Shown: piece after piece, positions 11,148 to 64,000 of the stretch | How the letters are laid out: each line of letters begins with the position of its first letter | How positions within the stretch are numbered: the stretch's first letter is position 1 | Origin: a bacterium | Lineage (GTDB): Bacteria; Planctomycetota; UBA8108; UBA1146 | NCBI GenBank assembly: GCA_029976805.1 | Contig: JAPOLY010000005.1 | Span: 1,353 to 65,352, forward strand | DNA: 64,000 nucleotides | Reading direction: 5' to 3' | Program-made: the position numbers and the translations under genes | Notes under the pieces: generated by a model | Told to the model about the DNA's origin: nothing | What the model saw: the letters and a program-made list of their open reading frames with translations, nothing else | Databases searched by the model: none

Positions 11148-11230
11148 CAGAAGAAGACATGCGAAGCGAAAGAAACCGATGGGACCTCCAGAACCGAAAA
11201 TCGGGACTTCCCTATTCTACAGGGTGAAAT

Positions 11231-21018: not shown

Positions 21019-22047
21019 ATGAGTGAAACCGTATACGTGGGCATGGATCTCGGTACCAGCCGAACCTCCATCACTACTTCCACCGGAGTCAGAACCACGG
21101 TGTGGTCATATGTGGGCTACGCTCAGGACCACGTCAGCAAAAAGTTGCTCGGCGGCAGAGACAAGGTCTTCGGTGAGGAAGCGGTTCAAAACCGCATGGC
21201 GGTCGATCTGGTCCGCCCCCTCGACAAGGGTGTGATCCGTGAGGACGAGAATGCCAAGCGGGCAACCCGTGACCTGATCGAGCATATTCTTGAACAGGCT
21301 GAGATTCCTTCCGGAAGCACTGTCTATGGAGTCATCGGTGCACCGGCGGAAGCCAGCGTCGGATCCAAGGCCCACATTCTTGAAGCCGCATCCGAATTCA
21401 TGGACAGCATCATTGTCTGCTCTGAACCCTTCTCCGTAGCATACGGATTGGACTTCCTTTCCGACACACTCGTGATCGATATCGGAGCCGGAACCGTCGA
21501 CCTGTGCAGAGTGCATGGAACGATGCCGAAAGAAGACGACCAGAGAACCCACCATTTCGGCGGAGATGCCATCGACCAGCGCCTCTTCGACCTGATTCAG
21601 GAGAAGCACCCGGAAGCCCAGTTCTCGGTCAACATGGTGCGTGAAATCAAAGAGAACTTTGCCAGTGTGGGACGCCAGCAGGATGCAGTCATGGCCACCT
21701 TCCCGGTCAAAGGCAAGCCGACTGAGTTCGACATCACCGACCAGGTTCGTGAAGCCTGCATGGGTATCGTCCAACCGACGGTCGAAGCTCTCCAGGATCT
21801 GATTGCTACCTACGACCCCGAGTTCCAGCAGAAGATGCGCAACCATGTCCTCCTTGGTGGAGGCGGTAGTCAGATCACCGGTCTGGCCCGCGCGATGGAA
21901 GAAGCCCTCGTCGAGTACGGTGGAGGCAAGGTCAAGACTGTGGAAGAGCCACAATACGCTGGATCCAATGGTGCCTTGCGTATCGCTCTCGACATGCCGG
22001 AAGAGTTCTGGAAAGAGTTCATGGACAATCAAAAGGAAAATGCCTGA
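21019..22047 (+). CDS. MamK-family actin-like filament protein
   Basis: Actin-fold phosphate-1 motif VGMDLGTSRT. Extended similarity to MamK throughout (YVGYAQD, GAPAEAS, CSEPFSVAYGLDFL, LVIDIGAGTVDLCRVHG, EKHPEAQFSVNMVREIKENFASVG, LLGGGGSQITGLARAMEEAL, NGALRIALDMPEEFW). Confidence 0.75.
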   Translation: MSETVYVGMDLGTSRTSITTSTGVRTTVWSYVGYAQDHVSKKLLGGRDKVFGEEAVQNRMAVDLVRPLDKGVIREDENAKRATRDLIEHILEQAEIPSGSTVYGVIGAPAEASVGSKAHILEAASEFMDSIIVCSEPFSVAYGLDFLSDTLVIDIGAGTVDLCRVHGTMPKEDDQRTHHFGGDAIDQRLFDLIQEKHPEAQFSVNMVREIKENFASVGRQQDAVMATFPVKGKPTEFDITDQVREACMGIVQPTVEALQDLIATYDPEFQQKMRNHVLLGGGGSQITGLARAMEEALVEYGGGKVKTVEEPQYAGSNGALRIALDMPEEFWKEFMDNQKENA

Positions 22048-22995: not shown

Positions 22996-25482
22996 TCAAA
23001 GCCCCTGAACCGGTCTGCTGGCAGAGGTGTTGAGATCTTCCCAACGCTCATCCAGAGTCTGAAGGCGCCCACCCAACTGATCGAGGGTCACCGTTCTTCT
23101 GGCAAAAGCAGAAAGGTCGTCCTCAAGGATGCCCAGCGGAATTTCACCGGAGATCATGGCCTCCTGAAGACGAACACTGAGGAACGTTGCAACCGACAGG
23201 AAATCAACCCCACGCTCGGACATTTTGGTCAGCAACTCAGAATATCCCAACTGAGTCAGGTCCCCTGCTGAGGGATACAGAATCTGATACTGCTCCTCGA
23301 GCAGATTCCTGAACTTGCCGTGCTGGTTCGCTTCACGTCCAAGTCCATCAATGAAGACAGCAAAATCCTGAAGGCTGTCCTTGTCGAAAGTCCTCAACAA
23401 GGAAATGGTTTCGTCTGAAAGGTCAGTTTCACCCCTCATGACGACCAGGTCCCCCTTCTCATAGAAGGTCTTCAACTTGTCGAAGGAAAGGCTGACCGCA
23501 TAGGGACTCGTGGGAACCACGATTTCCCTGCGAGGGGACACCACGTCATCGTAATCAAGGTCAGGATTCAGGCTTTTGATGTTTTCGACCAGAATTGCCG
23601 CCGCCTGGAAGAAGAGCTGACGCTCGTTCTTGGACCAGGTCGCAACCGACTTCTCCGGATGCCTGAGTTTGAGCATGCTCAGTTTCTCGGTCGCTTCCGG
23701 CAGATAATCTTCAAAAATCTTCAGGCGGCTGATGAGTTCGCGTTTCTTGACGATGCTCAGCAAGGTCAAGTCGACCACTTCAGCGCGGGAGAATCCCTCC
23801 ACCGGCGTTCTGCTGATGGGATCGAGTCCGACAAGGTCACGCCCTTTGAGAATGTAGCGATCATTGAAGAGCACACTGTTGCGAGTATCGAAGTGTCGAC
23901 TCTCTTTCGGAGTGGAAATGGGATCGACCCCATCTTCCGAAAGAATGTGCGGAGTCAGAACGATGATGATTTCAGAACGCTGTTTCTGGGAACTCTTGCG
24001 TCCGAAAAATCCTCCAATAACCGGAAGGTCGCCCAATCCGGGAATGGAATTTTTGGTATCGAATTCACTTTCCTTGATCAGACCACCAAGGATCAGGGGC
24101 CGATGGTTTTTAACCCTTGCCTGTCCCCTGAAATTCCGGGTCGCCACCTGCGGGATTCCCAGCAGGTCCTCCTCGAAGACCCGCTGTCTTCCTTGAAGAT
24201 TATTGACGGTGATATCGACCAGCATCGAGACTTCGTTTTCGTCATTACCACTGATTCGAGGCTTGACGACCAGAGTCGTACCGATGTGCTCAGTTCCAAC
24301 CTTGTTGGCATTCTCGACAAAGTTTCCACCACTGACGTCACGGACGACGTCGGTAGAGATGAAGGTTGGAATCTTTTCTCCAAGGTGAAGCTGACTCTGG
24401 CGATCGTCCAGCGCGTACAACTTGGGACGTGCTTTGATAATCGCGTCACCGTTGCGAACCAGTGCATGAACACCAGCAAGAAACTGGGAGGACAGAGCCT
24501 CGGCCGTGTCATCAAAGAGGAAAGAGAGACCCGATTGCTGAATGGGATTGAAATTGCTGCTGATCTCGGGAAGGGGTTCTCCCGGCAGAGGAGAGGCGAA
24601 ATTCACTACCGAATTGCGTTTTTCAAAGGCGAGTGTATCGACTCCCAGATCGGAAAGAGCGTCCGCTTCCAGTTCGATGATCTGCACCTCGATCATGATC
24701 TGCCTTGCGGGCACATCGATCATGGCAATGAATTCTTCAATCCGTTTCAGATCCTCATCCGTGCCCACCATCAGAATACGATTTCGTGTTTCCGTCGATG
24801 GTGATTCCTCAAAGGTCAGAGAGAGAGAAGCGTCTTCGATTCCAGTGCCCAACTTGACAGGGGGCAGTGAAATCGGGTCGACATGCGGGATCTCCAGAAC
24901 GTATGGGTATTCCGGAAGATCCCAGGATTGGAGCATCGTTCCGCTGGCAGCCTCATACTTTGAGTAGACCGCTTTCTCATATTTGCGGGTGATGGTCCTG
25001 TTTCCCTGTTTGACTGCGTCAGTCTTGACTTCCTCGGTTCGGTGATAGACCTGGCAAACCTTGCTGGCTGCCAGCGACTCCAGAACCAACTGGATTCCGG
25101 CATATTTGACCGTGATCGATTCCTGCTTGAGTCGATCCCGAATTCCCACCTGTTCAAAGCTGCGAATCGTTCTGATCAGCGATTCTGTAATTTCCTTTGT
25201 GCCATTGATCATCAGAGAGTTCTCACGGCCAGCAACACGACTGATGGTCTTGTCGTCGACAAACTTTTTCAGCCCTTGAGTGTCATTCAAAAACTGAAAC
25301 ACCTCATCGGTTTCAGCATGAAAAAGCTCGACAAAGGTGATGTTGGGGACCTGAGCGTCGGCAACTGGGACTTGGGCAAAGAAGGCCACGCACAAAGTGA
25401 GCACGATCCAACCGAAATTGAATCTTTCCCGTCTCTTACGACCGGGGTTGCTGACAAATGCGGACTTTTTGGAACGGTCCAT
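22996..25482 (-). CDS. secretin-family outer-membrane channel protein (GspD/PilQ-like) with a long N-terminal extension
   Basis: C-terminal secretin domain (LLGIPQVATRNFRGQARVKNHRPLILGGLIKE...IPGLGDLPVIGGFFGRK...SEIIIVLTPHIL) and a secretin-N-like domain (ILMVGTDEDLKRIEEFIAMIDVPARQIMIEVQIIEL). The start is at MDRSKK with an AGGAG/AAGGAAG RBS and a signal peptide (WIVLTLCVAFFAQVPVADAQ). Confidence 0.75.
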   Translation of the reverse strand: MDRSKKSAFVSNPGRKRRERFNFGWIVLTLCVAFFAQVPVADAQVPNITFVELFHAETDEVFQFLNDTQGLKKFVDDKTISRVAGRENSLMINGTKEITESLIRTIRSFEQVGIRDRLKQESITVKYAGIQLVLESLAASKVCQVYHRTEEVKTDAVKQGNRTITRKYEKAVYSKYEAASGTMLQSWDLPEYPYVLEIPHVDPISLPPVKLGTGIEDASLSLTFEESPSTETRNRILMVGTDEDLKRIEEFIAMIDVPARQIMIEVQIIELEADALSDLGVDTLAFEKRNSVVNFASPLPGEPLPEISSNFNPIQQSGLSFLFDDTAEALSSQFLAGVHALVRNGDAIIKARPKLYALDDRQSQLHLGEKIPTFISTDVVRDVSGGNFVENANKVGTEHIGTTLVVKPRISGNDENEVSMLVDITVNNLQGRQRVFEEDLLGIPQVATRNFRGQARVKNHRPLILGGLIKESEFDTKNSIPGLGDLPVIGGFFGRKSSQKQRSEIIIVLTPHILSEDGVDPISTPKESRHFDTRNSVLFNDRYILKGRDLVGLDPISRTPVEGFSRAEVVDLTLLSIVKKRELISRLKIFEDYLPEATEKLSMLKLRHPEKSVATWSKNERQLFFQAAAILVENIKSLNPDLDYDDVVSPRREIVVPTSPYAVSLSFDKLKTFYEKGDLVVMRGETDLSDETISLLRTFDKDSLQDFAVFIDGLGREANQHGKFRNLLEEQYQILYPSAGDLTQLGYSELLTKMSERGVDFLSVATFLSVRLQEAMISGEIPLGILEDDLSAFARRTVTLDQLGGRLQTLDERWEDLNTSASRPVQGL

Positions 25483-25696
25483 TTTCTTCCTTGCTCCTGC
25501 GAGTGAGACTGCGGGTCCACTTCGACAGATGGTCAGCCGATCTCTACACGCCAGAGAATAAACGGAGTTTCCCATTTTGAGTGGGAATCGACTCTCCAGC
25601 AGGCGATTTGTTTCGGCATTTCTACGAGAGTCGGCAGAGCCCGGATTGGGGCCCCTGCACAGGGTCGCAGTGCTCAAGATATCGATTATCGGCACG

Positions 25697-27886
25697 TTAT
25701 CTTCCATTCTCAACCAGAACCCAGCCACTCCAGCCAGAAACACGGTCAGTTGTCGATTTATCGCGAATCGACCTGCAGGCCTCTCTGAGAGCCTCTGCAG
25801 GCGAAATTCGGGCTCTGGCTGAGTCGATGAGATGGAGCGTTATTTGACGGGTCACTTCATCTTCGACAGGCCACAGTGACCCCAGAATCCCCTGACATCC
25901 CGCTTCCAAAACTGCTCGAGGAAAGCCTGCCAGATCATCAGATCCGGGCCCCCCAGCCAGTGCAGTCTCACAACCTGTGAGTAAAACGAGGCGACAGTCG
26001 GAAAGATTCCAGCCAGCCAAATTTCTCGCCAACAACTTTCCATCCGTGAAATTCTGGTCCGGAGTCAATCGAAGGGATGAGGATTGGGGGTCGCGTGGGT
26101 CGAAGTCCCCATGACACGCCAGGTGCAAGACCTTCTTGCCATGAAGTTGATCCCCAAGCCCGGTCACGGTCGCAGCCCCACCCGAGAGAACCATCGAGCT
26201 GGCCAATTTTTTGGCGACCGTCTCCCCCTCTGCTCTGGCACCGGGCAACCGGGCTTTTTCCGGGACATCGGGATCCACCAGAGACAACCAGTCTTCCGCT
26301 GGCAGGTATGAAAGCTCCCGTGAAGCGGACTTCAGATTCGGCAGCAGACTGACCGCGGTTCGATCCATCAGCGATCGTCCTGAGACGGGCAACATTCCCC
26401 AGGGAATTCTTCTCAACTCGTCCAACGGTACCAGCAACAATCTCTCAGTGACCGGCACCCCCGACCCGAACAACTTTGAGGAAATCCACGCCGCAGATTC
26501 GAGGTCTTTACCGCGACTGGAGTGAAGTCGGTTTATGAAGCCGACCAACTCACCCTTTTCACAATCCACAAGGCTCAACTTCCATAAACCTGCGTGGGTC
26601 GTCCATGTCAGCAATCGGGTTCCACAGTTCACCATGACCTGAACCGTGAAATCATCTCCCGCTTCCACTGCGAGAGCCTCGATCTGTTTGACATCAGGAG
26701 GGACTTCACCAGGATTGCGCACCCGCAGAAATTCTGAAGCATGCAGGGAAGCGAGGACTTCTCCGGATTGTGCCAAGAGTTCCGTCAACAGGAATGCGGG
26801 CTCTCGACGCTGGAACATGGCGGCGTGATCGGAACTGTATCGCAAGCGAATCTGTTCCACGGTCGCCACAGCAAGCCTGGCGTGCTCAATGGCGAGCGGG
26901 TATTCGCTCCGGAATTGATAAACTTTTGCCAGAGCCAGATCAGTCTTCCAGAGCGTCTCCAGATCACCCTTCAACTCCCGGGCAGATTCCACTGCCGTTC
27001 TCGTTTCTGTGAGCCAGCCTCTCGCTGCGGCGGTCTGTGATATTTCCACCAATGCCGCCGCAGCCAAAGCCCTGTCCCCGCTGGCTGTGGCTTTGTTCAA
27101 TGCACTGCGGGCATCATCCAACGATTGGATCAGGGCTTGCCGGCTTTCACCGGCATCGGAACTGCTCGAACTTTCTTCCCGTGCTCTTTTCGCTCTGTCA
27201 ATCAAGGCTCTCGTTTGAACCGGCGATCCTTCGGGAGCCAATTCAAAAGCGCGTGTGAGATCTCTTTTCGATCGGGGACCCTGAACACGATCAATCCTTG
27301 CAAAGACATCGAGAACGGAGGCATTCAACCGATACCACTCCGCTTCTTCTTCACGGTTCGTAGCGAAAGCCTTCAGTTCCTTCAGTTCCCGATAGGCAAC
27401 TATGGGATTTCCATCCCGCAAGTTTTTTGAGACCCGGTTCATGACCTCTTTGCGGCTTCCGCCGGTCGGATACCAGGGTTTCTGGTTCCAGTTTTGGATT
27501 GTCAGAAGATCGATCAAATCTCCCGACTCATTCCAGATTCTGGTGACGACTTGACCTTCAGGTACTCGACCGGGATCAGGCCCCCAAAGTTCCTCACCAC
27601 TGATTCCCAGATTCGCTTCCTTCCCATCCACATAGAAGGAAGCGAGACTGATTTCTGACTCTGCAGTTTTGAGGAGGACTTCCACACGACGGTCATCCCC
27701 GGATTCAGGTAAGTGAATATTGAAGAGCTCGCCCTCGATCAACGGTCGGTCGCCAGACAGTTCATCGATCAGTTGTGAAACAGACTGTGCATGTGAAGGG
27801 CTCGAAAATGCCACCAGAATGAGGCATGAGAAGAAAACCGGGGCTGAGCATTTCAGCAGATCCAAGAGGGTTGGACACCTGTTCAA
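25697..27886 (-). CDS. CHAT-domain (caspase-like) peptidase with an N-terminal TPR-like helical region, probably secreted
   Basis: C-terminal CHAT domain with His (HLACHGDF) and Cys (LVLLTGCETA) dyad. Helical repeats upstream. A signal-like hydrophobic segment (CSAPVFFSCLILVAFSSPSHAQ) is reached only from TTG starts near 27886/27865, so the exact start is uncertain. The ORF as drawn extends to 28015. Confidence 0.65.
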   Translation of the reverse strand: MNRCPTLLDLLKCSAPVFFSCLILVAFSSPSHAQSVSQLIDELSGDRPLIEGELFNIHLPESGDDRRVEVLLKTAESEISLASFYVDGKEANLGISGEELWGPDPGRVPEGQVVTRIWNESGDLIDLLTIQNWNQKPWYPTGGSRKEVMNRVSKNLRDGNPIVAYRELKELKAFATNREEEAEWYRLNASVLDVFARIDRVQGPRSKRDLTRAFELAPEGSPVQTRALIDRAKRAREESSSSSDAGESRQALIQSLDDARSALNKATASGDRALAAAALVEISQTAAARGWLTETRTAVESARELKGDLETLWKTDLALAKVYQFRSEYPLAIEHARLAVATVEQIRLRYSSDHAAMFQRREPAFLLTELLAQSGEVLASLHASEFLRVRNPGEVPPDVKQIEALAVEAGDDFTVQVMVNCGTRLLTWTTHAGLWKLSLVDCEKGELVGFINRLHSSRGKDLESAAWISSKLFGSGVPVTERLLLVPLDELRRIPWGMLPVSGRSLMDRTAVSLLPNLKSASRELSYLPAEDWLSLVDPDVPEKARLPGARAEGETVAKKLASSMVLSGGAATVTGLGDQLHGKKVLHLACHGDFDPRDPQSSSLRLTPDQNFTDGKLLARNLAGWNLSDCRLVLLTGCETALAGGPGSDDLAGFPRAVLEAGCQGILGSLWPVEDEVTRQITLHLIDSARARISPAEALREACRSIRDKSTTDRVSGWSGWVLVENGR

Positions 27887-28052
27887 AGACAGGTCATCTC
27901 TTGAATCAATTTGTGGCAGAACGGCCACTTTGGAAAAGGGCTTTTTCACTTCCCACAGGGAAGTGATCTTTGATCGGTAAATTTGGCGACTCCGAGATTG
28001 CTGCCGGGGCGGCAACCCGACACACCAAATATGCCGGAATCACAAAAAAACT

Positions 28053-38907: not shown

Positions 38908-39056
38908 TGTGTCGTAACTGTTTTATTAACCCGCCTGATCGTTCAGGCAGGAAGTTTTGATTTATCTCTATGGGAGGTGTGTCCCCTGCACCCGTCAAAA
39001 GTGCACGTGGATTCTTCCATGGAACATGGATTCCCCTATTTTGCCCGGGAGAAGTT

Positions 39057-42000
39057 ATGTCTCAGCTCCTTCGTCATCGCCTTGCCACTTTGCTACTGGC
39101 GATTTTTGTATTGGTAACCGGTGTCTTTTGCAGCGACGTCACAGTTGCTGGTGATGCTGTGTTCGTGGATACCGCCCAAATCAAGGTTTACGGTGCACGC
39201 TCAGACTCAAATCTGGGTAAATCCGTATCCGGTGCCGGTGATGTCAACATGGATGGTTACAAAGACACCATTCTTGGAGCACCGGAAAATGACAACACCT
39301 CGGATGGTCGCAGGGGCCATGCCTACATCGTATTGGGTTCCCCCAATATCGAGACTGAAATCGACCTGAAGAACCCGACACCTGGTACCACGATTAAAAT
39401 CGTCGGTTCACATGCGGGAGACCTTCTCGGTTACTCGGTCTCCGATGCAGGAGACGTCAACGGTGACGGGATTTCCGACTTCCTGATCGGAGCCCCAAAT
39501 TCTTATGGAAGCGGTGGATCGGATGAGGACGGCAATGGACGTGCCTACCTGATCTATGGTTCAGCCAACCTTCCCTCTGTCATCCACGTCGGATCACTGG
39601 GTAGCCTCGGCGTCACCTTTATTGGTGGACAGGAATCGGGTCACTTTGGCTACTCTGTCAGTGGTGCTGGAGACTTCAACTCTGATGGATATGCCGATCT
39701 CCTGATCGGTGCGCCGGATGAGGAGCATGGATCTTCCAACAGCGGTGCCGCATACCTCATCTACGGGGGCATGCTCTCTGGAACCATCGATCTGAAATTC
39801 GGTCACTCTTCTGTGACACGCTTCAAAACCGGTGGCAACAGTGACAATGTCGGTCACTCCGTTGCTGACCTCGAAGACTTCGATGGTGACGGTCACGATG
39901 ACATCGCGATCACCGCCATGCGCCATCCTGACGACGGCGGTATTAACGCCGGACGGGTCTGGGTGGTTTATGGTGGAATGTCCACAGGACCCAACGTCAA
40001 CTTGAACAATCTCTCGGACTACGGTCTTTCCGGCACAAAAATTCGCGTTCCCGATGGTGACCATGAGCTGGGTCAATCTGTCGCTGGAGCAGGGGATGCC
40101 GACAACGACGGTGATTCCGAGATTTTGATCAGCCGTTCCCTTCACGATCAGGATCCCACCACTTTGCAGACGATTGCCTATCTGGTGCGTGGATCCGCTG
40201 ATCGCCCGGCAACGATTCATCTCGGTCAGGGTGGTCCAGGCATCACTGCCTACAAAACCCTTTTCGACAATGATGAAGATGGCCAGACGGTTCACGGTAT
40301 CTATGACCACTCTGGAGATGGCCTTGACGATCACATCGTTGGTATCCCGAGAACCGTGATTCTTGAGCAGGAAAAAGGCAGCGCTCATCGCGTCAATGGT
40401 GGACAGGATCTTGGAGCCAATGAAGTGCTCGATCTTCACCAGCAGGAAGGCAGAGCCTACCTGGGAGTCCATGACAACCAGTCCGTGGGACGTTCCGTGG
40501 GTGGAGTTGGTGATATCAACGACGACCGCGCCAACGACCTCGTCATCGGTGCCCCTGGTGCCAGTCCTTACGGTCGTTTCCGTGCCGGTGTTGCCTACTT
40601 CTTCCTCGGCAAGGAACTCCGTTCACCGAATCAGGTTCAAACCAGTGCAGTCGGTCAGGTTGTGACCGTCACTTGGAACAATCGGGCCGTTTACGACACC
40701 GTTGAGTTGTTCCGTGATGGCATGCTGTTGGCCACACTTCCTGGTGATACTGAAACCTACACCGACTCAAATGTGGCCTACGGGGATCACACCTACAGAG
40801 TCCGCGGAAATCGCAGACACATCACGACCGTTAAAAAGTCGAGCATGATTCGTGTACTGACGCCGATTTCCAACTTCGAGTGCACCTCTCAGGGTCGCAA
40901 TGTGACCCTCGAGTGGCATAACAACGACAACTACTCTTCCACGGATGTCTATCGTGACGGAAACCTGATTGCGACCACTCCAGGTGGCGCCCAGTCTTAC
41001 TCCGATATCGACGTTTCGTATGGCCCCCATACCTACACCCTTGTGTCGCGTGGAGACCGAAGCGAAACCTTGCCGACCCACTGCATGATCAATGTCTTGC
41101 AGCCCCCTTACCTGCCCAGCTGTTTTGCTGAGCCAAACCCGGTCAGCAATGATGTGGAAGCCACCATTAACTGGACCAATGGCCCTGACACGATTTATGA
41201 AAACATCCGTATCTTCCGGGACGATCAGCTTCGCGCCACGATCTCCGGAACAGCGGTCACCTACACAGAAGTGCTTCCCGAGCCGGGAACCTACACCTAC
41301 TCCGTGCAAGGTGTCGATGACTCTGGGCGTGCACTCAGTGACAAGATCTACTGTGAAGTCGTCGATCCGATCGCACCGAAAGCTTTGGAGTGCAGCTCCA
41401 TCGGCCAGATCGCATTCTTCAACTGGGTTAATACCGACGCTTACGACACGATCATCATTGAGTTTGGCCCCGCGGATGGTTCGCAACCTCCGGTGAATCT
41501 GGCCACTCTTGCCGGTAACACCCAGTCCTACCAGACGACTGTGGCTGCCCCGGGTGAGTACACCGTATGTATTCGCGGTGAAAGCCTGATGGATCCCAAC
41601 TCGCCGAACTTCGGTCAGTCCAGCAGGATCTGCTGCACCCTTTCCGTTCCCTACCCTCTGGCAAACCTGACTTCGTCAGCCCAGGGTCAAGTCGTGAATC
41701 TGGAATGGGAAAATGGCGGTGAGTATGACACCATCGAAATCCTTCGGGATGGTCTCTTCCTTGCAAGCATCAGTGGTCACCTGACCAACTACACTGACAA
41801 CGCAGTTCCCTTCGGACTTCGGGAGTACACTCTGAGAGCCAAGCTGCGTCAGGGTGTGACCGACGATATCAGCACCTCTATCACGGTGTTGCGTTCTCCC
41901 GAGAACTTCACCTGCCGTGGTGAAGCAGATCAGGTTCGCCTGAACTGGACCAACCCACTTCCCAGCTACAGCGATATCGACATTTACAGGGATGGGCAGC

Positions 42001-45000
42001 ACCTGACGAGCGTCTCCGGTGACGATATGGAGTACATCGATGCTCCTCTGAGCCCGGGATCCTTCAGTTACTCCATCAAGGCACGTCTTGGAAGCAGCAC
42101 CAGTGATTCTTCCGATTGCGATACGGTGATTCCTGAGCCGATCAACACGGTTGGAACTGGGCTTCTGAATGGTCGCAACGTACTGATCACCTGGGCTAAC
42201 CCGGTGACGGAAGCCACTTCGGTGCGCCTCTTCCGCGATGGCAATGAGATTGCTTCGCTTCCGCCGACCACCACTGCATTCCTTGATCCGGATCTTTTAG
42301 TCGGAACCTACACCTACTGTGTGCGGGCAGAGATTGATGATAACTACAGCAGTCTTTCCTGTGCAGATGCCATCGTCCCGGCTCCGCCGAATGACATCAC
42401 CTGCACTGTTGATAACGCTGTCACCACGGTCACTTGGACCAACGGTGAACTCTACGACAACATCATCATCATGCGTGATGGTGGAACTATCGAAGAAGAA
42501 ATCGCCGGTGATGCCAGTTCTTACGTCGATAACAATCCAGGGCCAGGACCTCACCTTTATCAGGTCTTCGGGCGCATCGGCGACTTCGTCTCCGAAAGCC
42601 TCGACTGCCAGGTCATCGTGCCTTATCCGCCGGCGCAGCTCGTCTGCACTCTGGCGAATGGCACGGATTCGGTCTTGAGTTGGATCAACACCGAGCCTTC
42701 CACAAGCATCCTGATCTACAGGGACGGAGTTCAAATCGCTGAAGTGGCACCGGATGCCGGTGGATACACGGATGCGGGTGTTGCTCCGGCCACCTACACC
42801 TACTGTGTGGTCAATGTCTTTGCCCATGCTCCGGGTTCCAAGACCAGTGCGCCGACCTGCTGCGACCTGGTTGTTCCGGCACCGCCGACCAATCTCACCT
42901 GCCTCTCCGTTTCCGGAGACGTGGAGTTGGCATGGGTCAACAATGATGCCTACGAAACCCTGACCCTGCGTCGTGATGGCAACGTCATTGCGGAGTTGGA
43001 TGGAACCAGCACCTCGTACACCGATCCGCTGGTCACTCCTGGGAATCACATGTACTCCATTGCCGGAACGATCCTGGGCAATACCTCCACTTACGATTCC
43101 TGCATGGAAGATGTGCCTGCAGCGATTACGGACCTCTCCTTGAGTTCCTTCGCTGATACCGTGACTCTCAACTGGAATCACAGTGGACCCGGCGATGAAG
43201 TGGTCATCGCCCGTGACGGCACCGTGATCGCCACTTTGAGCAGCTCTGAGACCACCTACACCGATACGGGCCTTGCTGCCGGTGATTACGAGTACTGCCT
43301 GACGATGACCATCGGTGACGGTACCAGCCCGACCGTTTGCGGATTCATTCACGTTCTTGCAAATCCGAGTGACCTCAGTTGTGTCTCCGCTGCCGGCTTC
43401 GTTAATCTTTCATGGACCAACAACGACGCCTACGACAATCTGGTCATCGAGCGCGATGGAACCTTGCTGGCGATCCTGTCCGGAACAGACACCAGCTACA
43501 CCGACGGCAGCGCCGCGGTGGGCCTGCGTTCCTACACCCTCCGTGGTGAGACCTCGACCAGCATCAGTGGTAATGACAGCTGCACCGTCGACCACTTCCT
43601 TACGGCACCGGGTAACCTCAGTTGCTCCGTGACTGCCGGAGAAGCCGACCTTTCGTGGACCAATGGTGACACCTACGAAAGCATCGTCGTCAGCCGCGAT
43701 GGCACCCTTCTCGAGATTCTTCCGGGAGATGTCACCAGCTACCATGATGCCACCATCGTTTATGGATCCCGTTCCTACTCCCTGGTGGCAACCGGTGGCA
43801 GTATCGAAAGTGATCCGACCAGCTGTGGCCTCGAAGTTCCGGCCATGCCTATGGACCTCGCCTCCAGCACCCTCGACGACACCGTTACCCTGACCTGGAC
43901 CCTTGCGGCACCGGGTGAGGCTCAGACAGTGACACGCGATGGAGCTGTGATCGCCACCATCGGTGGTGGTATGACGATGTTCACCGACACCCCGGGACCG
44001 GGCACCTACGAATACTGTGTGACCAACTCCATCGGCGGCAATACCAGTGCCACTGTGTGTACCGCTGCCAGAGTGCTCGCCAACATGACCGGATTCTCCT
44101 GCAGCTCCGCTGCCGGTCTGGTCACCATCACCTGGACCAACAACGACACCTACGGTGCCCTGTTGCTGGAGCGGGACGGCGAAAAACTGGCCAGCCTCAA
44201 TGGTGATACCAGTTCCTACGTCGATACCACTGCAGATACCGGCAACCACACCTACGAGTTGACTGCTTCTGTGGAGACGGAAAACACCACCAGTGGAACC
44301 TCCACCTGTACCGTGCTTCACGAGTTGGCTCCGGTCTCCGACCTGGCCTGCTCCGTCACCGCCGGTGAAGTCGATCTTTCCTGGAACGTCAACGACACCT
44401 ACGAGTCGATCAGCCTGAGCCGTGACGGTGAGTTCCTCGCCCTTCTCTCCGGAGATGCGACCTCTTACCACGATGCGGACGCGCTGGCCTTTGGTGCTCA
44501 CACCTACTCTCTGGTGGCTGCTGCCGGCTCTATCGAAAGTGATGCGACCAGTTGCACCGTCGAGGTTCCGTCCACTCCCGAGAATCTGGTTTGCACCCTT
44601 TCGAATGGTGCTCAGGTTCAGTTGAGCTGGGATCTTCCGGCTGCCGGCAGTTCCGTCAGCATCTTCCGGGATGGTGCCCTGATCGACACTCTGGGTGGAT
44701 CAGCCACGAGTTACACCGACACTCCGGGTTCGGGGGTCTACACCTACTCCGTAGTCAACAACAGTGCCGACGGTACTTCACCGGCGACCTCTTGTGACAT
44801 CGTCGTTCCGGTGCCGCTGTCCGGCCTCGGTTGCACGACCATCGGTGACGGTAACATTCTCACGTGGACGAATGGTGAAACTTACGACTCCATTGCCGTC
44901 TACCGCAATGGTGAGAAGATCGGTGCCGCCAATGGAGGAACCGAGTCCTTCACCGACTTCCCGCTGGATGCCGGAACCTACGACTACGACCTGATCGCCA

Positions 45001-45569
45001 GCATCGGTACCTCCGAGACGGCTCCGGTCTCTTGCTCTGTCACGATCCTGCCGCCACCGATCAATCTTGCGTGCACTTTCTACGGTGCACCGATCAACCT
45101 GAACTGGGTCAACACTGCCAACTACACGACGATTCACATCGAGCGTAACGGGGTACTTCTGGCCTCGATTTCCGGCAATGCCACCCAGTACCAGGACATC
45201 GTTCCGGTGGAAGGTGACTACAGCTACGTGATCTATGGTGAGCATGCCGACGGTGTCACCACCTCGACCACCTGCTCCGGATACGTCAAGCGCTTCCTCA
45301 GGGGTGATGCCAACAGCGACACCAACTGCGATATCGCTGACGGTATCTGGGTCCTGAACTGGCTCTTCATCGGAGGACAGGAGCCGACCTGTTACGACTC
45401 CGCGGACTTCGACGATAACGGACTCGTCACCATTGGCGACGCCATGCTGATGATCTTCTACTACCTGCACGCTGAGGGTATGCCGAGCATGCCTCCCGCG
45501 AACAACTACCCGGAGCCGGGTCTCGACCCGACCGACGACACTCTCGACTGTATTGATTCGCCCTACTAG
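39057..45569 (+). CDS. giant secreted adhesin-like protein: 7 FG-GAP repeats (integrin-alpha-type beta-propeller), ~19 tandem ~88 aa Ig/FN3-like domains, C-terminal RGD-dockerin-like/Cys-tail module
   Basis: Signal peptide MSQLLRHRLATLLLAIFVLVTGVFCSDVTVAG. FG-GAP motifs (GDVNMDGYKDTILGAP, GDVNGDGISDFLIGAP, GDFNSDGYADLLIGAP, GDINDDRANDLVIGAP ...). Repeated domain consensus L.W.N...YD.I.I.RDG..IA.L.G..TSYTD.....G.H.Y.L. The C-terminus is FLRGDANSDTNCDIADGIWVLNWLFIGG...DFDDNGLVTIGDAMLMIFYYL...LDPTDDTLDC. Confidence 0.85.
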   Translation: MSQLLRHRLATLLLAIFVLVTGVFCSDVTVAGDAVFVDTAQIKVYGARSDSNLGKSVSGAGDVNMDGYKDTILGAPENDNTSDGRRGHAYIVLGSPNIETEIDLKNPTPGTTIKIVGSHAGDLLGYSVSDAGDVNGDGISDFLIGAPNSYGSGGSDEDGNGRAYLIYGSANLPSVIHVGSLGSLGVTFIGGQESGHFGYSVSGAGDFNSDGYADLLIGAPDEEHGSSNSGAAYLIYGGMLSGTIDLKFGHSSVTRFKTGGNSDNVGHSVADLEDFDGDGHDDIAITAMRHPDDGGINAGRVWVVYGGMSTGPNVNLNNLSDYGLSGTKIRVPDGDHELGQSVAGAGDADNDGDSEILISRSLHDQDPTTLQTIAYLVRGSADRPATIHLGQGGPGITAYKTLFDNDEDGQTVHGIYDHSGDGLDDHIVGIPRTVILEQEKGSAHRVNGGQDLGANEVLDLHQQEGRAYLGVHDNQSVGRSVGGVGDINDDRANDLVIGAPGASPYGRFRAGVAYFFLGKELRSPNQVQTSAVGQVVTVTWNNRAVYDTVELFRDGMLLATLPGDTETYTDSNVAYGDHTYRVRGNRRHITTVKKSSMIRVLTPISNFECTSQGRNVTLEWHNNDNYSSTDVYRDGNLIATTPGGAQSYSDIDVSYGPHTYTLVSRGDRSETLPTHCMINVLQPPYLPSCFAEPNPVSNDVEATINWTNGPDTIYENIRIFRDDQLRATISGTAVTYTEVLPEPGTYTYSVQGVDDSGRALSDKIYCEVVDPIAPKALECSSIGQIAFFNWVNTDAYDTIIIEFGPADGSQPPVNLATLAGNTQSYQTTVAAPGEYTVCIRGESLMDPNSPNFGQSSRICCTLSVPYPLANLTSSAQGQVVNLEWENGGEYDTIEILRDGLFLASISGHLTNYTDNAVPFGLREYTLRAKLRQGVTDDISTSITVLRSPENFTCRGEADQVRLNWTNPLPSYSDIDIYRDGQHLTSVSGDDMEYIDAPLSPGSFSYSIKARLGSSTSDSSDCDTVIPEPINTVGTGLLNGRNVLITWANPVTEATSVRLFRDGNEIASLPPTTTAFLDPDLLVGTYTYCVRAEIDDNYSSLSCADAIVPAPPNDITCTVDNAVTTVTWTNGELYDNIIIMRDGGTIEEEIAGDASSYVDNNPGPGPHLYQVFGRIGDFVSESLDCQVIVPYPPAQLVCTLANGTDSVLSWINTEPSTSILIYRDGVQIAEVAPDAGGYTDAGVAPATYTYCVVNVFAHAPGSKTSAPTCCDLVVPAPPTNLTCLSVSGDVELAWVNNDAYETLTLRRDGNVIAELDGTSTSYTDPLVTPGNHMYSIAGTILGNTSTYDSCMEDVPAAITDLSLSSFADTVTLNWNHSGPGDEVVIARDGTVIATLSSSETTYTDTGLAAGDYEYCLTMTIGDGTSPTVCGFIHVLANPSDLSCVSAAGFVNLSWTNNDAYDNLVIERDGTLLAILSGTDTSYTDGSAAVGLRSYTLRGETSTSISGNDSCTVDHFLTAPGNLSCSVTAGEADLSWTNGDTYESIVVSRDGTLLEILPGDVTSYHDATIVYGSRSYSLVATGGSIESDPTSCGLEVPAMPMDLASSTLDDTVTLTWTLAAPGEAQTVTRDGAVIATIGGGMTMFTDTPGPGTYEYCVTNSIGGNTSATVCTAARVLANMTGFSCSSAAGLVTITWTNNDTYGALLLERDGEKLASLNGDTSSYVDTTADTGNHTYELTASVETENTTSGTSTCTVLHELAPVSDLACSVTAGEVDLSWNVNDTYESISLSRDGEFLALLSGDATSYHDADALAFGAHTYSLVAAAGSIESDATSCTVEVPSTPENLVCTLSNGAQVQLSWDLPAAGSSVSIFRDGALIDTLGGSATSYTDTPGSGVYTYSVVNNSADGTSPATSCDIVVPVPLSGLGCTTIGDGNILTWTNGETYDSIAVYRNGEKIGAANGGTESFTDFPLDAGTYDYDLIASIGTSETAPVSCSVTILPPPINLACTFYGAPINLNWVNTANYTTIHIERNGVLLASISGNATQYQDIVPVEGDYSYVIYGEHADGVTTSTTCSGYVKRFLRGDANSDTNCDIADGIWVLNWLFIGGQEPTCYDSADFDDNGLVTIGDAMLMIFYYLHAEGMPSMPPANNYPEPGLDPTDDTLDCIDSPY

Positions 45570-46596: not shown

Positions 46597-48747
46597 ATGT
46601 TGCACACCAAAGATTCGATTATCGGTCTTCGATCTTCCGAATTTGCGACCATGAACCGTTGGCTACTGCTGGCGCTGATCCTGATCGTCGGTTCGGTGCA
46701 AAACCAGGCCTCGGCACAGGTGTTCTGTGATCCTGCCAATCCGACTTACGGAACCTGCTTTCTGCAGACAGGAACATTCAGCGGTGACCTTCCCTTTGCG
46801 GTGACCCTGATCCCTGCCACCAACGATCTTTACGTGGCGGATTATCTCAGTGGTGTTTTCTACCGCTACGACGCTCTTGACCTCGCCGCAGCGGCAGAAA
46901 ACTTGGCCTGCCCCAAAGGCCCTGCCACCTACCTCGGGATGGCTTTTTCTGTTCTCGACAACAACCTTTACTGGATCGTCAATGATCAGGGAAGCCTGCT
47001 GCTGGTGGTCTCCAGCCTTGGAGGAAGCTTCATCTCTGAAACCGAGTTGACTCCTCCTTCCGGAACGACCGCCCTCTCGGGACTGACCTGGTTCCCGTCA
47101 ACAAATACTCTTTGGACCAATGACTTTGAAAATGATCAGTACCTCGAGATGAACATGGACGGTTCCTTCACCGGAAACTCCTTCGGAAACCCCCAATCCT
47201 CGGGAGCTGCAGGCGCCTTTGGACTGGGACTTTCGGTCGCTCAGGACATCCTTACTTTTGAGTTCTTCTTTGACCTCCCGGTCGGCCCACCTTCTGCAAA
47301 CCGCACAAGCCTGGTCGAGCGTGTCAATTCGAACGGTGAATCCCAGGGCCTCTCATTCCCGCTGGCCAGCATCAATAACCTGAGTGGCTGGATCACCGGA
47401 ATCGCCTGGGCTCCCCAGGGTTCTGCTGCGGAATCCCCCAGTAACTTCCTCCTCGATCTCACCAATCGGGTGATCGTCGAGGTTCCGGTTCCCAACCCGC
47501 CCGCCCCTTCCATAACCTCTGTCGATTGCACCGCTGACAGCTCCAACGATGTCACTCTCAGCTGGACCAATCCCCTCGCCTACGATCAGGTTGAGATCTT
47601 CAGGGACGGAACCCTGATCTCCACCCTCGGCCCTGGAGGCGATACGTTCCTGGACGAGGATCTCGAGCCGGGGAGCTACAGTTACGAAGTCGTTCCCTTC
47701 CCTGCAGGAGCCAGTTCCGGATTGCCTGCCGCAACATGTGAGCTGGTAGTCGGGTTCGGCAGGCTTCTGGGAGAGGTGGCTCACTCCGGAACTGCACCGG
47801 GTGGCGCAGACGTCATCGAATCAACGAATCAGTTGATCGTTGCCGATTCCAGTGGACTGACCGCATGGTTCTACCAGAAAGACCTCACCCCTCTCTCCAC
47901 CAGCATCCCGGGCCCTTACAGCAGTGCCCAATCCCTCGCTGGTATCGCCGCCGATGGCGACGACAATTTGGCTTGGCTGACGGAGAGCGGAGATCTGAGA
48001 ATCACCGACTTGAGTGGAACCGAAACAGCGGCATTCGCTCTGGCCCTGAACCCCGGCGCCGTTTTGGGTGGCCTGACCTGGTCTGCTCAGATGGAAAGCT
48101 GGCTGACAGTCAACCTTGCTGAGGGTCTGATCCTGAAAATCAATACCGACGGTACTCTCGAAGAAGTCCCCGCTGCACTTCCCACAGGAATGTCTGCGGC
48201 CTCCTTCTTCGGCGGAATCGCCTCCCGTGCAGGTTCCACCAATGTCTATGATCTGGCATTCGGAGCCCTCAACAGTGGCGGTGTCACTCGCCTCGAAAGA
48301 TTCGTGGGGAATACCCCGGTCGGACTGGGATTCGATCTCACGCCCAGCGTCAACTCCGGAGATATTCGTGGGCTCGCAGCCACTGCGAACGGGCCCTTCA
48401 ACTTCCCGGTGACCTACGTGGTCGGTCGCGACTCTGGAACCATCACCATGCTCTCTGGAGATCTCAGTGGTACCGGATCAGACTTCGTTCGCGGGGACGC
48501 GGTGGCAGATGGATCCCTGAACCTTCTCGATGCCACCGAAATGCTGCTTCAACTTTTCCAGTTACAGGACAGCCTTTGCCTCGATTCACTCGACGCCAAT
48601 GACGATGGAGCTTTCAACATTGCGGATCCCCTGCTCCTGCTGGACTACCTTTTCTCCGGCGGCACTCCGATTTCCGATCCTTCGGGAGTGTGTGGAGAAG
48701 ATCCGACGGTCGACAATCTGACCTGCCAGGAGTTCCCCGGCTGCTAA
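46597..48747 (+). CDS. secreted protein with one Ig/FN3-like domain of the giant-protein repeat type and the C-terminal RGD-dockerin-like/Cys-tail module
   Basis: GAGGAAAGAG RBS. Long signal peptide (...MNRWLLLALILIVGSVQNQASAQ). Internal domain VTLSWTNPLAYDQVEIFRDGTLISTLGPGGDTFLDEDLEPGSYSYEV. C-terminus FVRGDAVADGSLNLLDATEMLLQLF...DANDDGAFNIADPLLLLDYLFSGG...CGEDPTVDNLTCQEFPGC. Confidence 0.7.
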   Translation: MLHTKDSIIGLRSSEFATMNRWLLLALILIVGSVQNQASAQVFCDPANPTYGTCFLQTGTFSGDLPFAVTLIPATNDLYVADYLSGVFYRYDALDLAAAAENLACPKGPATYLGMAFSVLDNNLYWIVNDQGSLLLVVSSLGGSFISETELTPPSGTTALSGLTWFPSTNTLWTNDFENDQYLEMNMDGSFTGNSFGNPQSSGAAGAFGLGLSVAQDILTFEFFFDLPVGPPSANRTSLVERVNSNGESQGLSFPLASINNLSGWITGIAWAPQGSAAESPSNFLLDLTNRVIVEVPVPNPPAPSITSVDCTADSSNDVTLSWTNPLAYDQVEIFRDGTLISTLGPGGDTFLDEDLEPGSYSYEVVPFPAGASSGLPAATCELVVGFGRLLGEVAHSGTAPGGADVIESTNQLIVADSSGLTAWFYQKDLTPLSTSIPGPYSSAQSLAGIAADGDDNLAWLTESGDLRITDLSGTETAAFALALNPGAVLGGLTWSAQMESWLTVNLAEGLILKINTDGTLEEVPAALPTGMSAASFFGGIASRAGSTNVYDLAFGALNSGGVTRLERFVGNTPVGLGFDLTPSVNSGDIRGLAATANGPFNFPVTYVVGRDSGTITMLSGDLSGTGSDFVRGDAVADGSLNLLDATEMLLQLFQLQDSLCLDSLDANDDGAFNIADPLLLLDYLFSGGTPISDPSGVCGEDPTVDNLTCQEFPGC

Positions 48748-61786: not shown

Positions 61787-62407
61787 ATGTGCCCTGCTGC
61801 TGAAAAGCCTGACTCTGAAGCCGGAGCCGAGGAGAACGATGACATCCGTCTCGTTCGCCTGGCGATGGCCGGAGACACACAGGCCTTTACCCAGCTGGCA
61901 GAGAACATCGCACCACTGCTCCTCGGAATGGCCCGCAGAAAGGTCGGACGGGAAGACGCAGAGGATCTTGCACAGGAGGCGATGCTTCACCTGTGGAAAT
62001 CACTGCCGAACCTTCGTGAGCCCCAGGCATTCTATGGCTGGCTTTCCAGACTGCTGCGCAATCGTGCGCACCGTTGGATTGAGCGCCGGCAACGGAAAAC
62101 CGTGGTCCTCGAGGAGGCCCGTCACGAACTGTTGCTCAGGGCCCAAACCCGTACCGACCAACAGGATTTCACCGACGCCGGTGAATCCGAATCGCGGGAA
62201 TGGCTCGACCAGCTTCCGGATGAGATGCGCCTCGCACTCACCTGGAAGTACGTGGATGGTCTCGATTACGACACCATCGGCGAAAGACTCTCCCTCTCCT
62301 TTCATCAGGTCGATTACCTGATGCGCCGGGCCCGAAAAGCCCTGAAGTCGCTTCTCGACCAACGGGAAACCGCCCGTCGGGATCTTTCGAATGGAGGCCG
62401 AGGATGA
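61787..62407 (+). CDS. ECF-type RNA polymerase sigma factor
   Basis: Region 2 (LAQEAMLHLWKSLPNLREPQAFYGWLSRLLRNRA) and region 4 (LALTWKYVDGLDYDTIGERLSLSFHQVDYLMRRARKAL). AAGGAG RBS. The start is at MCPAAEKP. The track ORF begins earlier at 61583. Confidence 0.8.
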   Translation: MCPAAEKPDSEAGAEENDDIRLVRLAMAGDTQAFTQLAENIAPLLLGMARRKVGREDAEDLAQEAMLHLWKSLPNLREPQAFYGWLSRLLRNRAHRWIERRQRKTVVLEEARHELLLRAQTRTDQQDFTDAGESESREWLDQLPDEMRLALTWKYVDGLDYDTIGERLSLSFHQVDYLMRRARKALKSLLDQRETARRDLSNGGRG

Positions 62408-63093
62408 GTGCCGATTCTCTCTTTTCACTGCAAAGCTGCCCCACCATCGTCGAGGCATTGCCCCGATTTATCGATGGCGAATCTGGACCGACCGAAGAGA
62501 TTCGGGTGGCCCAGCATCTCGAGCGTTGCAGTCGTTGTCGCAAACAGCATGACCATATGGTGCAAGAGTGGAAAGACACCCTCGCTGTCATCCATGGTGA
62601 CCCGAGCACTGAAACCCGAACCTGGGTCAAAGACATCACCTCTGCTCTACCTCAGCAGGAGGAACCGGTCACGACCGATGAAAGTCCGGTCACCCTTTCT
62701 GCTCCTGCGACGGTGCCCGGCCCGGGCTCTGGTCGCTGGGCCAGCGTGGCCGCCTCCCTGTTACTCGCCCTCTTCCTCTTCCCCGGAACTGAAAAGACCC
62801 CCTCTCCCAGCGGAACTGAATCTGCTCCCGTTGCCCTGACCCTCATCCGCGGAGACGTCGATGCCAGTGGCAAACTGGATTGGCGAGACGTTCAGGGGCT
62901 GATCGATTTCCTGCAGGAAGATGGACCGGAACCGCGCTGCATTGCTGCCGGTGACTTTGACGAGGATGGAGAGATCACCATCGATGATTCGGTTTTGGCT
63001 CTTTCACACCTCACCGAAGGGGCCGGACTCGATTCCACCATTCTTTACTCCCAAACAGTGGATTCCCTGCCCTGCTTTGAACACTGCCCCTGA
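62404..63093 (+). CDS. zinc-finger anti-sigma factor whose periplasmic domain is the RGD-dockerin-like/Cys-tail module
   Basis: ATGA overlap with the sigma gene. zf-HC2 motif (HLERCSRCRKQHDHM). Single TM (WASVAASLLLALFLFPG). Extracytoplasmic LIRGDVDASGKLDWRDVQGLIDFL...DFDEDGEITIDDSVLALSHL...DSLPCFEHCP. Confidence 0.7.
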   Translation: MSADSLFSLQSCPTIVEALPRFIDGESGPTEEIRVAQHLERCSRCRKQHDHMVQEWKDTLAVIHGDPSTETRTWVKDITSALPQQEEPVTTDESPVTLSAPATVPGPGSGRWASVAASLLLALFLFPGTEKTPSPSGTESAPVALTLIRGDVDASGKLDWRDVQGLIDFLQEDGPEPRCIAAGDFDEDGEITIDDSVLALSHLTEGAGLDSTILYSQTVDSLPCFEHCP

Positions 63094-63112: not shown

Positions 63113-64000
63113 ATGCTTCCGAAGAGCCTGCTTCTGCTGACGATCGCCTTGCCACTGTGGATCTTCCACAGCCCGGTGGATGAATCTGTTGCAGCAAGCT
63201 CCAGATCCCCGGTCCATGTCGACGAGGAAAAACCCTTTGTTCTTCTCGCCACAGTCCACAACTTCGGCTACGTCGAACCCTGTGGCTGACCCAAGAGAAA
63301 GATCAAGCTCGGCAGTCTGTCGCGGCGACTCACTTACCTGAACTCACTGAAAGCCCAGGGCATCGAACCGTGCATCGTTGACGGTGGAGACTGGCTCTTT
63401 CACCTCAACAAGTTGCGCTCCAATCCACTGGTCATGAAACAAATGGACGAAAAAGCCAAATTGCTCATCGATGCCTACAACCGCTTTGGAACCGCAGCGG
63501 TCTGCCTGGGTGAGCACGATATGGCTTTGGGTCTCGATCGCCTTCTCGAGTTGGCGAAGGAACTCAAATTTCCACTCCTCTGTGCCAACATGACCCTCAA
63601 GGATGGAACACGCCCCTTTGGGGGAAGCACCATTGTCGATAGTCAGGGTCGTAAAGTTCTTCTGGTTGGTGCCATCCAGATCCCCAACGAGCGTTTTATC
63701 GGCAAACATTGTCCAGACGCACAATTTACCGATCCCTACGAAGCGATCAAAAAAGAGATCGACCAATCCAGAGGAAAGTTTGATCTGTGTGTCGTCCTCG
63801 GTCATATCGATCGTCGGGATGTGGATCGACTCGCAGCGGAGGTTCCGGGAATTGACGTCATCGTCGAACCCCACTCCCATGACCGGACAGAAATCACCTG
63901 GATCACCGAGGACATCAAAACCGGTCTTCATGAGGGAACGGTTCTCCTCAAGCCCAGTGGTCAGGGTTCCGAATTTGCCAGAGCTGATCTCTGGTTCCGA
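63113..64000 (+). pseudogene. 5'-nucleotidase/metallophosphoesterase (UshA/CapA-like) gene interrupted by an in-frame TGA at 63287; continues off the window
   Basis: A signal peptide ORF (MLPKSLLLLTIALPLWIFHSP...VEPCG*) is followed in the same frame by IVDGGDWLF, LGEHDMALG, PLLCANMTLKDG, GRKVLLVGAI, which are metallophosphoesterase/5'-NT N-domain motifs. No start codon follows the stop for ~140 nt. Confidence 0.5.

Follow-up and report, generated by a model that had tools for sequence, protein, structure and literature searches.

A dockerin variant with a conserved Pro/Cys tail ends six secreted or membrane proteins of a marine planctomycete and is probably a docking module

Why do six otherwise unrelated proteins, all encoded within one 64,000-nucleotide stretch of planctomycete contig JAPOLY010000005.1 (this whole stretch is called the window hereafter), end in the same short module? 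The original prediction, made from the letters of the window, regarded the module as a portable, non-catalytic surface signal with dockerin-like calcium loops, and suggested that its Cys-bearing tail might be a processing or attachment site. Dockerin-cohesin assembly is textbook biology of cellulose-degrading Firmicutes. In the analysis described here, the docking reading was supported while the sorting or processing reading was not, and we consider it likely, with a probability of about 70%, that we are dealing with a form of the type I dockerin peculiar to Planctomycetota, which has a disulfide-pinned tail and plugs into cohesins.

The module is 83-91 amino acids (aa) in length and terminates six coding sequences (CDSs) of the window, whose products are secreted or membrane proteins of a marine planctomycete. 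A hidden Markov model (HMM) built from the six copies and run against all stop-to-stop open reading frames (ORFs) of the window in six frames recovered exactly these six, with E-values of 1e-30 to 4e-40 and a next-best match at E ~5, and the copies could be aligned by MAFFT with a mean column identity of 53%, so the claim of a single shared module held for all six. R-G-D, a linker Cys, several Asp and one tail Leu are invariant among them. Given that the other copies share 28-47% pairwise identity with the first one, the window copies are old and shuffled rather than the result of recent duplication. They are listed below, with the 2-Cys and 4-Cys types referring to the linker and tail cysteines described later.

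4584-4838 (-): dockerin-variant module, 85 aa, 2-Cys type
8565-8822 (-): dockerin-variant module, 86 aa, 4-Cys type with one extra Cys
11328-11591 (-): dockerin-variant module, 88 aa, 4-Cys type; the copy used for the AlphaFold2 model
45294-45566 (+): dockerin-variant module, 91 aa, 2-Cys tail type (one predicted disulfide) with an extra loop Cys; C-terminus of the FG-GAP giant, placed at 45300-45569 by the original prediction
48484-48744 (+): dockerin-variant module, 87 aa, 4-Cys type
62842-63090 (+): divergent dockerin-variant module, 83 aa, 3 Cys, without CGxDPT, on an anti-sigma factor

By fold and by profile, the module is homologous to the type I dockerin. A profile of the six window copies (A1) matched type I dockerins in the PDB (2y3n_B, E 2.7e-6; 1daq, 7.9e-6; 2mte, 9e-6), with the remaining matches being dockerins and a few EF-hand proteins at weak E-values, and the matched region spanned profile positions 10-71 only, leaving the tail outside. 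AlphaFold2 modelling of the 11325 copy with an alignment of 114 family sequences (A2) resulted in a predicted local distance difference test score (pLDDT) of 92.9 and a predicted template modelling score of 0.84, and the model contains the two expected helices (20-32 and 52-64). The credible matches of this model in a Foldseek search of the PDB were all dockerins (probability 1.0, template modelling score ~0.7-0.8 normalised to the target, 54-72 aligned columns). Two tandem loop-helix segments of ~22 residues (D-x-[ND]-x-[DNS]-G-x-x-x-[ILV]-x-D), by which type I dockerins are recognised, are present, and the calcium-loop ligands D11/N13/D15/D22 and D43/N45/D47/D54 are each kept in 84-114 of the 114 sequences, in agreement with the two calcium loops that had been read from the window. 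The original prediction had also left room for the module being a domain that already has a name. Its core is indeed Pfam Dockerin_1 (PF00404), and many relatives exceed the gathering threshold of 22.9 bits (for example 134 bits in family protein P0122 and 64.7 bits in P0132), but the window copies do not. Precomputed PF00404 annotation is found on 34 of the 120 matches listed, some relatives bear the NCBI name 'dockerin type I repeat-containing protein', and a scan of the window carriers with NCBIfam gave no model matching the module.

The family turned out to be very large, with members drawn almost entirely from Planctomycetota metagenomes. When representatives of 50%-identity clusters were searched with the A2 profile, 56,479 of them were matched at E <= 1e-3, 30,299 at E <= 1e-10 and 4,512 at E <= 1e-30. 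Solved classical dockerins reach about 30 bits or less against profile A1 and would thus be expected to miss these thresholds at this library size, with the reservation that the scoring used A1 and the search A2. A scan of GTDB genomes by the peptide pattern FxRGDANxDG gave at least 507 confirmed loci, the best 80 of which were analysed (L-numbers below); 68 of these carry a Planctomycet* label, and they come from metagenome-assembled genomes (MAGs) of marine, groundwater and sediment origin. Over the 1.27 Mb that the window and these loci make up, 191 modules are carried by 181 ORFs, and a single 20 kb locus (L028) has as many as 9 of them, indicating that six modules in 64 kb are typical of these genomes. 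The other 12 of the best 80 loci belong to MAGs with labels other than Planctomycetota. Among them are a 341 kb contig assigned to Nanoarchaeota (L078) and loci assigned to Parcubacteria (L012), Patescibacteria (L043), Bacillota MAG 7 (L011, L019 and L041) and Omnitrophota (L050 and L071); mis-binning, mislabelling or a truly wider distribution may lie behind these labels.

If the module is a plug, where are the sockets? A cohesin-like partner was among the possibilities raised by the original prediction, and cohesins were found in the family, in the same polypeptides and loci as the module. Five family proteins contain Pfam Cohesin above the gathering threshold (P0126, 46.2 bits; P0130, 55.5; P0133, 28.3; P0138, 37.6; P0186, 58.0), in each case placed between Cys-tailed dockerin copies of the same polypeptide, as in P0130 with its order of signal peptide, dockerin (Doc) and cohesin (Coh) modules SP-Doc-Coh-Doc-Coh-Doc-Coh-Doc. 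A cohesin-like profile was seeded from the inter-dockerin segments of the Pfam-positive proteins and then iterated on the loci, no window sequence being admitted to it. Across the window and the 80 loci, this profile detected 36 ORFs with cohesin-like modules, 35 of which also bear a dockerin. Usually these are either C-terminal (Coh)1-3-Doc arrangements, in which hardly any linker separates the modules, or Doc-Coh-Doc. Searched against the PDB, the resulting locus-derived alignment (A4, 47 members) matched cohesins in 36 of 37 cases (best E 5e-11), and 8 of the 47 members match Pfam Cohesin (PF00963) by themselves. Cohesin-like modules are also present in 101 of the 150 top representatives.

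The window itself offers six plugs and one candidate socket, which occupies about aa 460-615 of CDS 4581-6692, between a PKD domain and the dockerin.

4848-5333 (-): divergent cohesin-like module, 162 aa, immediately preceding the dockerin of this protein

This segment was matched by the seed profile at E 6e-4 and by the iterated profile, which contains no window sequences, at E 4.5e-20. Blastp connected it with the cohesin-like modules of L067 (1.7e-14) and L055 (1.7e-12), and phmmer with P0175 (2.5e-24) and, weakly, with the Pfam-positive cohesin region of P0186 (1.4e-3), while comparing this one sequence with the seed alignment by hhalign gave 61% probability (E 7.9e-5). A phmmer search of the PDB with the segment returned no match at E <= 10, and a homologue search with the segment alone returned only a fragment of the same protein. 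On these sequence comparisons we regard 4848-5333 as cohesin-like with moderate confidence.

The tail is what sets the module apart. Its consensus across the 114 sequences is P-x-P-[FY]-P-x-C-G-x-D-P-T-x-D-x-L-x-C-x4-5-C, with P72 kept in 112 sequences, G77 and D79 in 111 each, T81 in 104, L85 in 103 and C87 in 109, and the linker Cys is present in all 114. The Cys of the CG pair and the last Cys are both found in 92 sequences and both missing from 18, with the last Cys alone in 4 and the CG Cys alone in none (Fisher p 1.8e-17, a value that overstates independence because the sequences are related). The simplest reading of this co-variation would be two disulfides, linker-LxC and CG-last, together with a one-disulfide subtype. 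In the window, the copies of CDSs 8562, 11325 and 46597 belong to the 4-Cys type and those of 4581 and 38970 to the 2-Cys type. The claim of a common CGxDPT tail on all six needs correction, as the motif is absent from the anti-sigma copy, and the 4581 and 38970 copies are without the first and last tail Cys. The two types were also considered as markers of scaffold and cargo, and this was rejected since their association with cohesin was not significant (odds ratio 2.3, p 0.087). The tail blocks have pLDDT values of 85-86 in the AlphaFold2 model, and the only bridge residues assigned by DSSP are 7 (the aromatic residue before RGD) and 77 (the G of CG), placing the tail beside the N-terminus. 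As modelled, the domain is lengthened by the conserved Pro/Cys tail, which is folded back on the N-terminus and is not a free-end signal.

Several observations speak against a plug made for cohesins. Besides the relatedness of the sequences in the co-variation count, all six window copies lie under the Dockerin_1 gathering threshold (17.5 and 18.5 bits in two of them, no match in four), and the candidate socket at 4848-5333 is matched by no Pfam family alone and gave a pLDDT of 30.2 when modelled together with its dockerin by single-sequence AlphaFold without an alignment. Moreover, 146 of the 181 dockerin ORFs in the window and loci are without a cohesin, and cohesin-only anchoring proteins were almost never seen among the 36 cohesin-like ORFs. 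Such a surplus of cohesin-free carriers would suit a partner-independent calcium module, acting as a stabiliser, as a binder of polysaccharide, lipopolysaccharide or peptidoglycan, or as a calcium/redox sensor, with cohesins being relevant to a subset only. Dockerin folding depends on calcium, which would agree with such a role, as would the anti-sigma copy, which is divergent, has an odd number of cysteines and lies in three orthologous loci with no cohesin within 10 kb. However, the repeated tight fusion of cohesins to this same dockerin variant is hard to explain without an interaction, and many plugs with fewer sockets are what cellulosome logic leads one to expect. We therefore take the partner-independent module to be possible but unlikely.

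Could the tail instead be a C-terminal signal for sorting, processing or covalent attachment by a sortase-, exosortase- or T9SS-like (type IX secretion system) machine? Its strongly conserved motif, the diverse secreted carriers and the terminal position of the module in all six window proteins, in 114 of the 120 fragment matches listed and in 159 of the 191 modules of the window and loci would be expected of such a signal. The position is not strict family-wide, however, and here the original prediction of a strictly terminal module has to be restricted to these sets. The representative search returned proteins with 2-12 copies of the whole module, and the 150 best representatives, among which multi-copy proteins are over-represented, have 455 modules. 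Of these, 318 are internal or N-terminal, with more than 20 residues between them and the C-terminus. The tail is mostly kept in them: 224 of the 318 extend into the tail part of the profile and 151 retain the G-x-D-x-T...C motif, and P0121, P0125 and P0129 carry tandem copies with the tail kept in each. No hydrophobic or basic segment follows the tail, and the proteins stop 0-10 residues past the last Cys. Internal tail-bearing copies and the lack of an anchor segment make a signal that needs a free C-terminus unlikely, and the Cys co-variation is more in line with intradomain disulfides. An exosortase, sortase or rhombosortase signal was rejected because the layout of motif, transmembrane helix and basic cluster was not seen and no NCBIfam sorting-domain model matched, and a T9SS C-terminal domain (a beta-sandwich of ~80-100 aa) because the model is a helical EF-hand pair, internal copies are common and NCBIfam again gave no match. 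The module also resides on an inner-membrane anti-sigma factor. Taken together, a sorting or attachment signal, the role that had been suggested for the tail, is very improbable.

An integrin-type adhesion motif aimed at eukaryotic hosts or prey, to which the R-G-D of 110-111 of the 114 family sequences might point, is barely credible, because the first calcium loop starts with the G-D of this 'RGD' (D being loop position 1), just as it does in classical dockerins, with a family-specific Arg in front. The motif lies inside a folded domain beside the tail in the model, and it is retained in an anti-sigma factor that faces the envelope and not a host.

The carriers agree with the portable, non-catalytic nature that had been proposed for the module, since a PKD protein and a giant with FG-GAP repeats are among them, as is a protein with a YVTN beta-propeller. 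Five of them begin with signal-peptide-like N-termini (judged by eye from the translations), while the sixth is a membrane anti-sigma factor (see below).

4581-6692 (-): carrier CDS, 703 aa, with signal peptide, PKD domain (aa 373-451), cohesin-like module and dockerin variant
8562-11147 (-): carrier CDS, at least 861 aa, YVTN-type beta-propeller
11325-14621 (-): carrier CDS, 1,098 aa, with signal peptide, Cys/Asp-rich
38970-45569 (+): carrier CDS, 2,170-2,199 aa, with signal peptide, FG-GAP repeats and RGI_lyase-like beta-sheet domains
46597-48747 (+): carrier CDS, 716 aa, with signal peptide, not matched by any Pfam domain

The start of the FG-GAP giant is likely at 39057, and a sub-threshold Dockerin_1 is the sole Pfam match of CDS 11325-14621. 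The C-terminus of CDS 46597-48747 is identical to P0021, an NCBI protein from a Planctomycetota MAG. CDS 8562-11147 probably begins further upstream than the listed TTG. Its first ATG/GTG/TTG falls inside a signal-peptide-like hydrophobic core (...GFFRFACLLLLSACCPGILSAQ, then G) at window 11147-11216 (-), and the open frame upstream holds no canonical start codon, so that a non-canonical start or a sequence error there may be involved.

How would such a plug work? In the docking mechanism that we propose, a pair of calcium-binding EF-hand (F-hand) repeats is extended by a Pro-rich tail of ~25 residues folding onto the N-terminal [F/W]-x-R-G-D, and the tail would be pinned by one disulfide between the linker Cys and the Cys of 'LxC', to which the 4-Cys form would add a second one between the 'CG' Cys and the last Cys. 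The carriers would be exported via Sec, and the module would fold in the oxidising, calcium-containing envelope or exterior and plug non-covalently into cohesin modules. Since the cohesins of this lineage are nearly always fused to dockerins (...Coh-Doc, Doc-Coh-Doc or alternating arrays), cargo and adaptors would form chains or networks, that is, a 'planctosome'-type complex. Within the window, four proteins would act as cargo only, the product of CDS 4581-6692 as both socket and plug, and one copy as the sensor domain of the anti-sigma factor. Cargo in related loci includes PhoX and an M12B reprolysin peptidase (Reprolysin-TIG-Coh-Doc in L055).

Related Planctomycetota loci frequently encode small Doc-Coh-Doc proteins (380-440 aa) and arrays in which Doc and Coh alternate (for example L028, L031, L052, L053 and L059, and P0121-P0270), often within clusters of several dockerin genes. 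Trivalent connectors of this kind could polymerise. A further step would be a self-assembling envelope network across Planctomycetota, built with Doc-Coh-Doc and Coh-Doc connectors and monitored by an anti-sigma dockerin that reads occupancy or integrity; we put this forward as a speculation that is decidedly unlikely in its full form. Were it true, cohesin-dockerin binding would for the first time be seen to gate signalling across a membrane.

The most unusual carrier of the window is the anti-sigma factor, which is encoded together with a sigma factor whose stop overlaps its start by 4 nucleotides.

61787-62407 (+): ECF-type (extracytoplasmic function) sigma-70 factor with regions 2 and 4 (Sigma70_r2, r4_2)
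62404-63093 (+): anti-sigma factor, 229 aa, with zf-HC2 at aa 12-46

The longest ORF of the sigma gene begins at 61583, and the start at 61787 was deduced from orthologue lengths. The anti-sigma factor combines zf-HC2 (PF13490, 34.7 bits against a threshold of 22.2) with a hydrophobic segment around aa 112-129, from which ~18 aa of linker lead to the dockerin, the sole extracytoplasmic domain of the protein; zinc finger, single membrane segment and adjacent sigma gene together identify the pair as a ZAS-type anti-sigma factor with an ECF sigma factor. Twelve full-length orthologues, down to 44% identity, retain this zf-HC2/membrane/dockerin architecture. In their alignment (A5), the dockerin is the best-conserved part while linker and membrane region drift, and RGD, both calcium loops, the linker Cys and a terminal L-P-C-x3-C-P are invariant. 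The gene order around the pair is kept in two distant loci (L081 and L082), neither of which has a cohesin or other dockerin gene within 10 kb of it. The idea that such fusions are common across the family was rejected, as none was found in the other 175 module ORFs or in 270 proteins examined by the H-x3-C-x2-C motif and phmmer. The fusion thus represents one lineage-specific orthologous group among the sampled carriers.

By analogy with RsgI factors, the anti-sigma dockerin is most likely a sensor. It could bind a cohesin or, dockerin folding being calcium-dependent, report the loss of calcium or of disulfide integrity, and in this way it would couple docking status, or the calcium/redox integrity of the envelope, to transcription. 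The A5 alignment also shows that this dockerin has three invariant Cys, namely the linker Cys and a C-x3-C at the very end. Because it is without the CG Cys that elsewhere would partner the last Cys, one thiol may be unpaired, possibly forming a redox-sensitive or intermolecular site.

Directly downstream of the anti-sigma gene and co-directional with it, window 63113-64000 (+) forms one frame with a single in-frame TGA (63287-63289) in the context ...GY[VI]EPCG-TGA-PKRKIKLGSLSRR... Orthologous TGA genes are located at 10721-12187 of L081 and 10702-12165 of L082, where gene callers split the gene into an ORF of 56-57 aa and a 'Cytochrome_C554' ORF of 417 aa in the same frame. The TGA, its flanks and ~36 nucleotides of downstream DNA are almost identical in the two distant orthologous loci, and a conserved hairpin, in which no compensatory changes were seen, begins ~18 nucleotides past the TGA. 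The TGA is a candidate selenocysteine codon (Cys-Gly-Sec) in what would be a secreted cytochrome-family protein. From its position, the gene is also the first candidate for regulation by the sigma factor.

The rest of the window is ordinary chromosome, with the carriers scattered among housekeeping genes such as those for EF-G, GcpE, RF, SHMT, TrpRS, a secretin and glycosyltransferases. Within window 22996-28015 (-), the secretin gene (PF00263) overlaps the end of the gene for a 772 aa CHAT-domain protein, and an actin/MreB-like gene (21019-22047) is found upstream of the secretin region, adjoining two ORFs with no Pfam match. None of these genes is evidently linked to the dockerin carriers.

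What would follow if the docking reading holds? The same plug-and-socket logic would then operate in a very large and poorly annotated family of marine and groundwater Planctomycetota, and with a profile extended to the stapled tail, one could annotate surface proteins now called 'hypothetical' by the thousand and draw up complete inventories of plugs and sockets per genome. The predicted disulfide-stapled clasp implies a dockerin suited to an oxidising envelope and could give sturdier connectors for synthetic biology, while the dockerin-bearing anti-sigma factor would provide a handle on the purpose of the assemblies and on their monitoring by the cell.

Among known systems, PEP-CTERM/exosortase, LPXTG/sortase, GlyGly-CTERM, MYXO-CTERM and the T9SS C-terminal domain resemble the module in being portable C-terminal elements of unrelated secreted proteins; unlike them, the module has no transmembrane helix or basic tail and occurs in internal and tandem copies. 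The likeness to the type I dockerin-cohesin pairs found in the cellulosomes of clostridia and ruminococci (PF00404/PF00963; PDB 1ohz, 2ccl, 2y3n and 5nrk) includes the duplicated calcium-loop-helix repeats, the C-terminal position on diverse secreted cargo and the presence of cohesins in scaffold-like proteins. By contrast, the module adds a Pro/Cys tail of ~25 aa with one or two predicted disulfides, an invariant linker Cys and a fixed Arg before G-D, and its window copies score below the Pfam threshold. Further differences from cellulosomes are that the cargo is not cellulases, that cohesins are almost always dockerin-fused, that no SLH or sortase anchor was seen here, and that the host is a diderm planctomycete.

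The tail has a counterpart in the intramolecular clasp, in which contact between an N-terminal aromatic residue and Pro-containing C-terminal residues stabilises the calcium-bound dockerin (Slutzki et al. 2013, PMC3821032). In the model of the present module, [F/W]-x-RGD likewise adjoins the P-x-P-[F/Y]-P-x-C-G tail through the 7-77 bridge, but the tail here is much longer, conserved and predicted to be fixed by disulfides, whereas classical bacterial dockerins are without them.

Non-cellulosomal dockerins and cohesins have already been reported in Planctomycetes, where a 'planctosome' of cohesin/dockerin proteins was proposed for the freshwater Nemodlikiaceae (Andrei et al. 2019, PMC6461901), a model that is itself hypothetical and concerns a few proteins of one freshwater family. 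It shares with the present family, so far as its description goes, cohesin/dockerin modules unrelated to cellulose degradation, M12B reprolysin-type cargo (compare L055) and adaptors that bear both dockerin and cohesin. By that description, the planctosome account mentions neither a Cys-stapled tail nor a family of this size, and neither the Coh-Doc rule nor the anti-sigma dockerin. In the literature searched, we found no description of a Cys-stapled tail, a Coh-Doc fusion rule or a dockerin-bearing anti-sigma factor, an absence that does not amount to priority.

Finally, the anti-sigma factor recalls the RsgI-type anti-sigma-I factors of Clostridium thermocellum with their carbohydrate-binding sensor modules (PMC6582324, PMC10328401). 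Membership of 62404-63093 in the RsgI family itself was rejected, since the Pfam scan gave only zf-HC2 and a sub-threshold Dockerin_1, and the pair has zf-HC2 (ZAS-type) with an ECF sigma factor instead of RsgI_N with sigma-I, a dockerin instead of a carbohydrate-binding module as its putative sensor, and no evident autoproteolytic periplasmic domain. What the two share is the plan: a membrane anti-sigma factor next to the gene of its alternative sigma factor, with an extracytoplasmic end that is borrowed from an extracellular assembly system.

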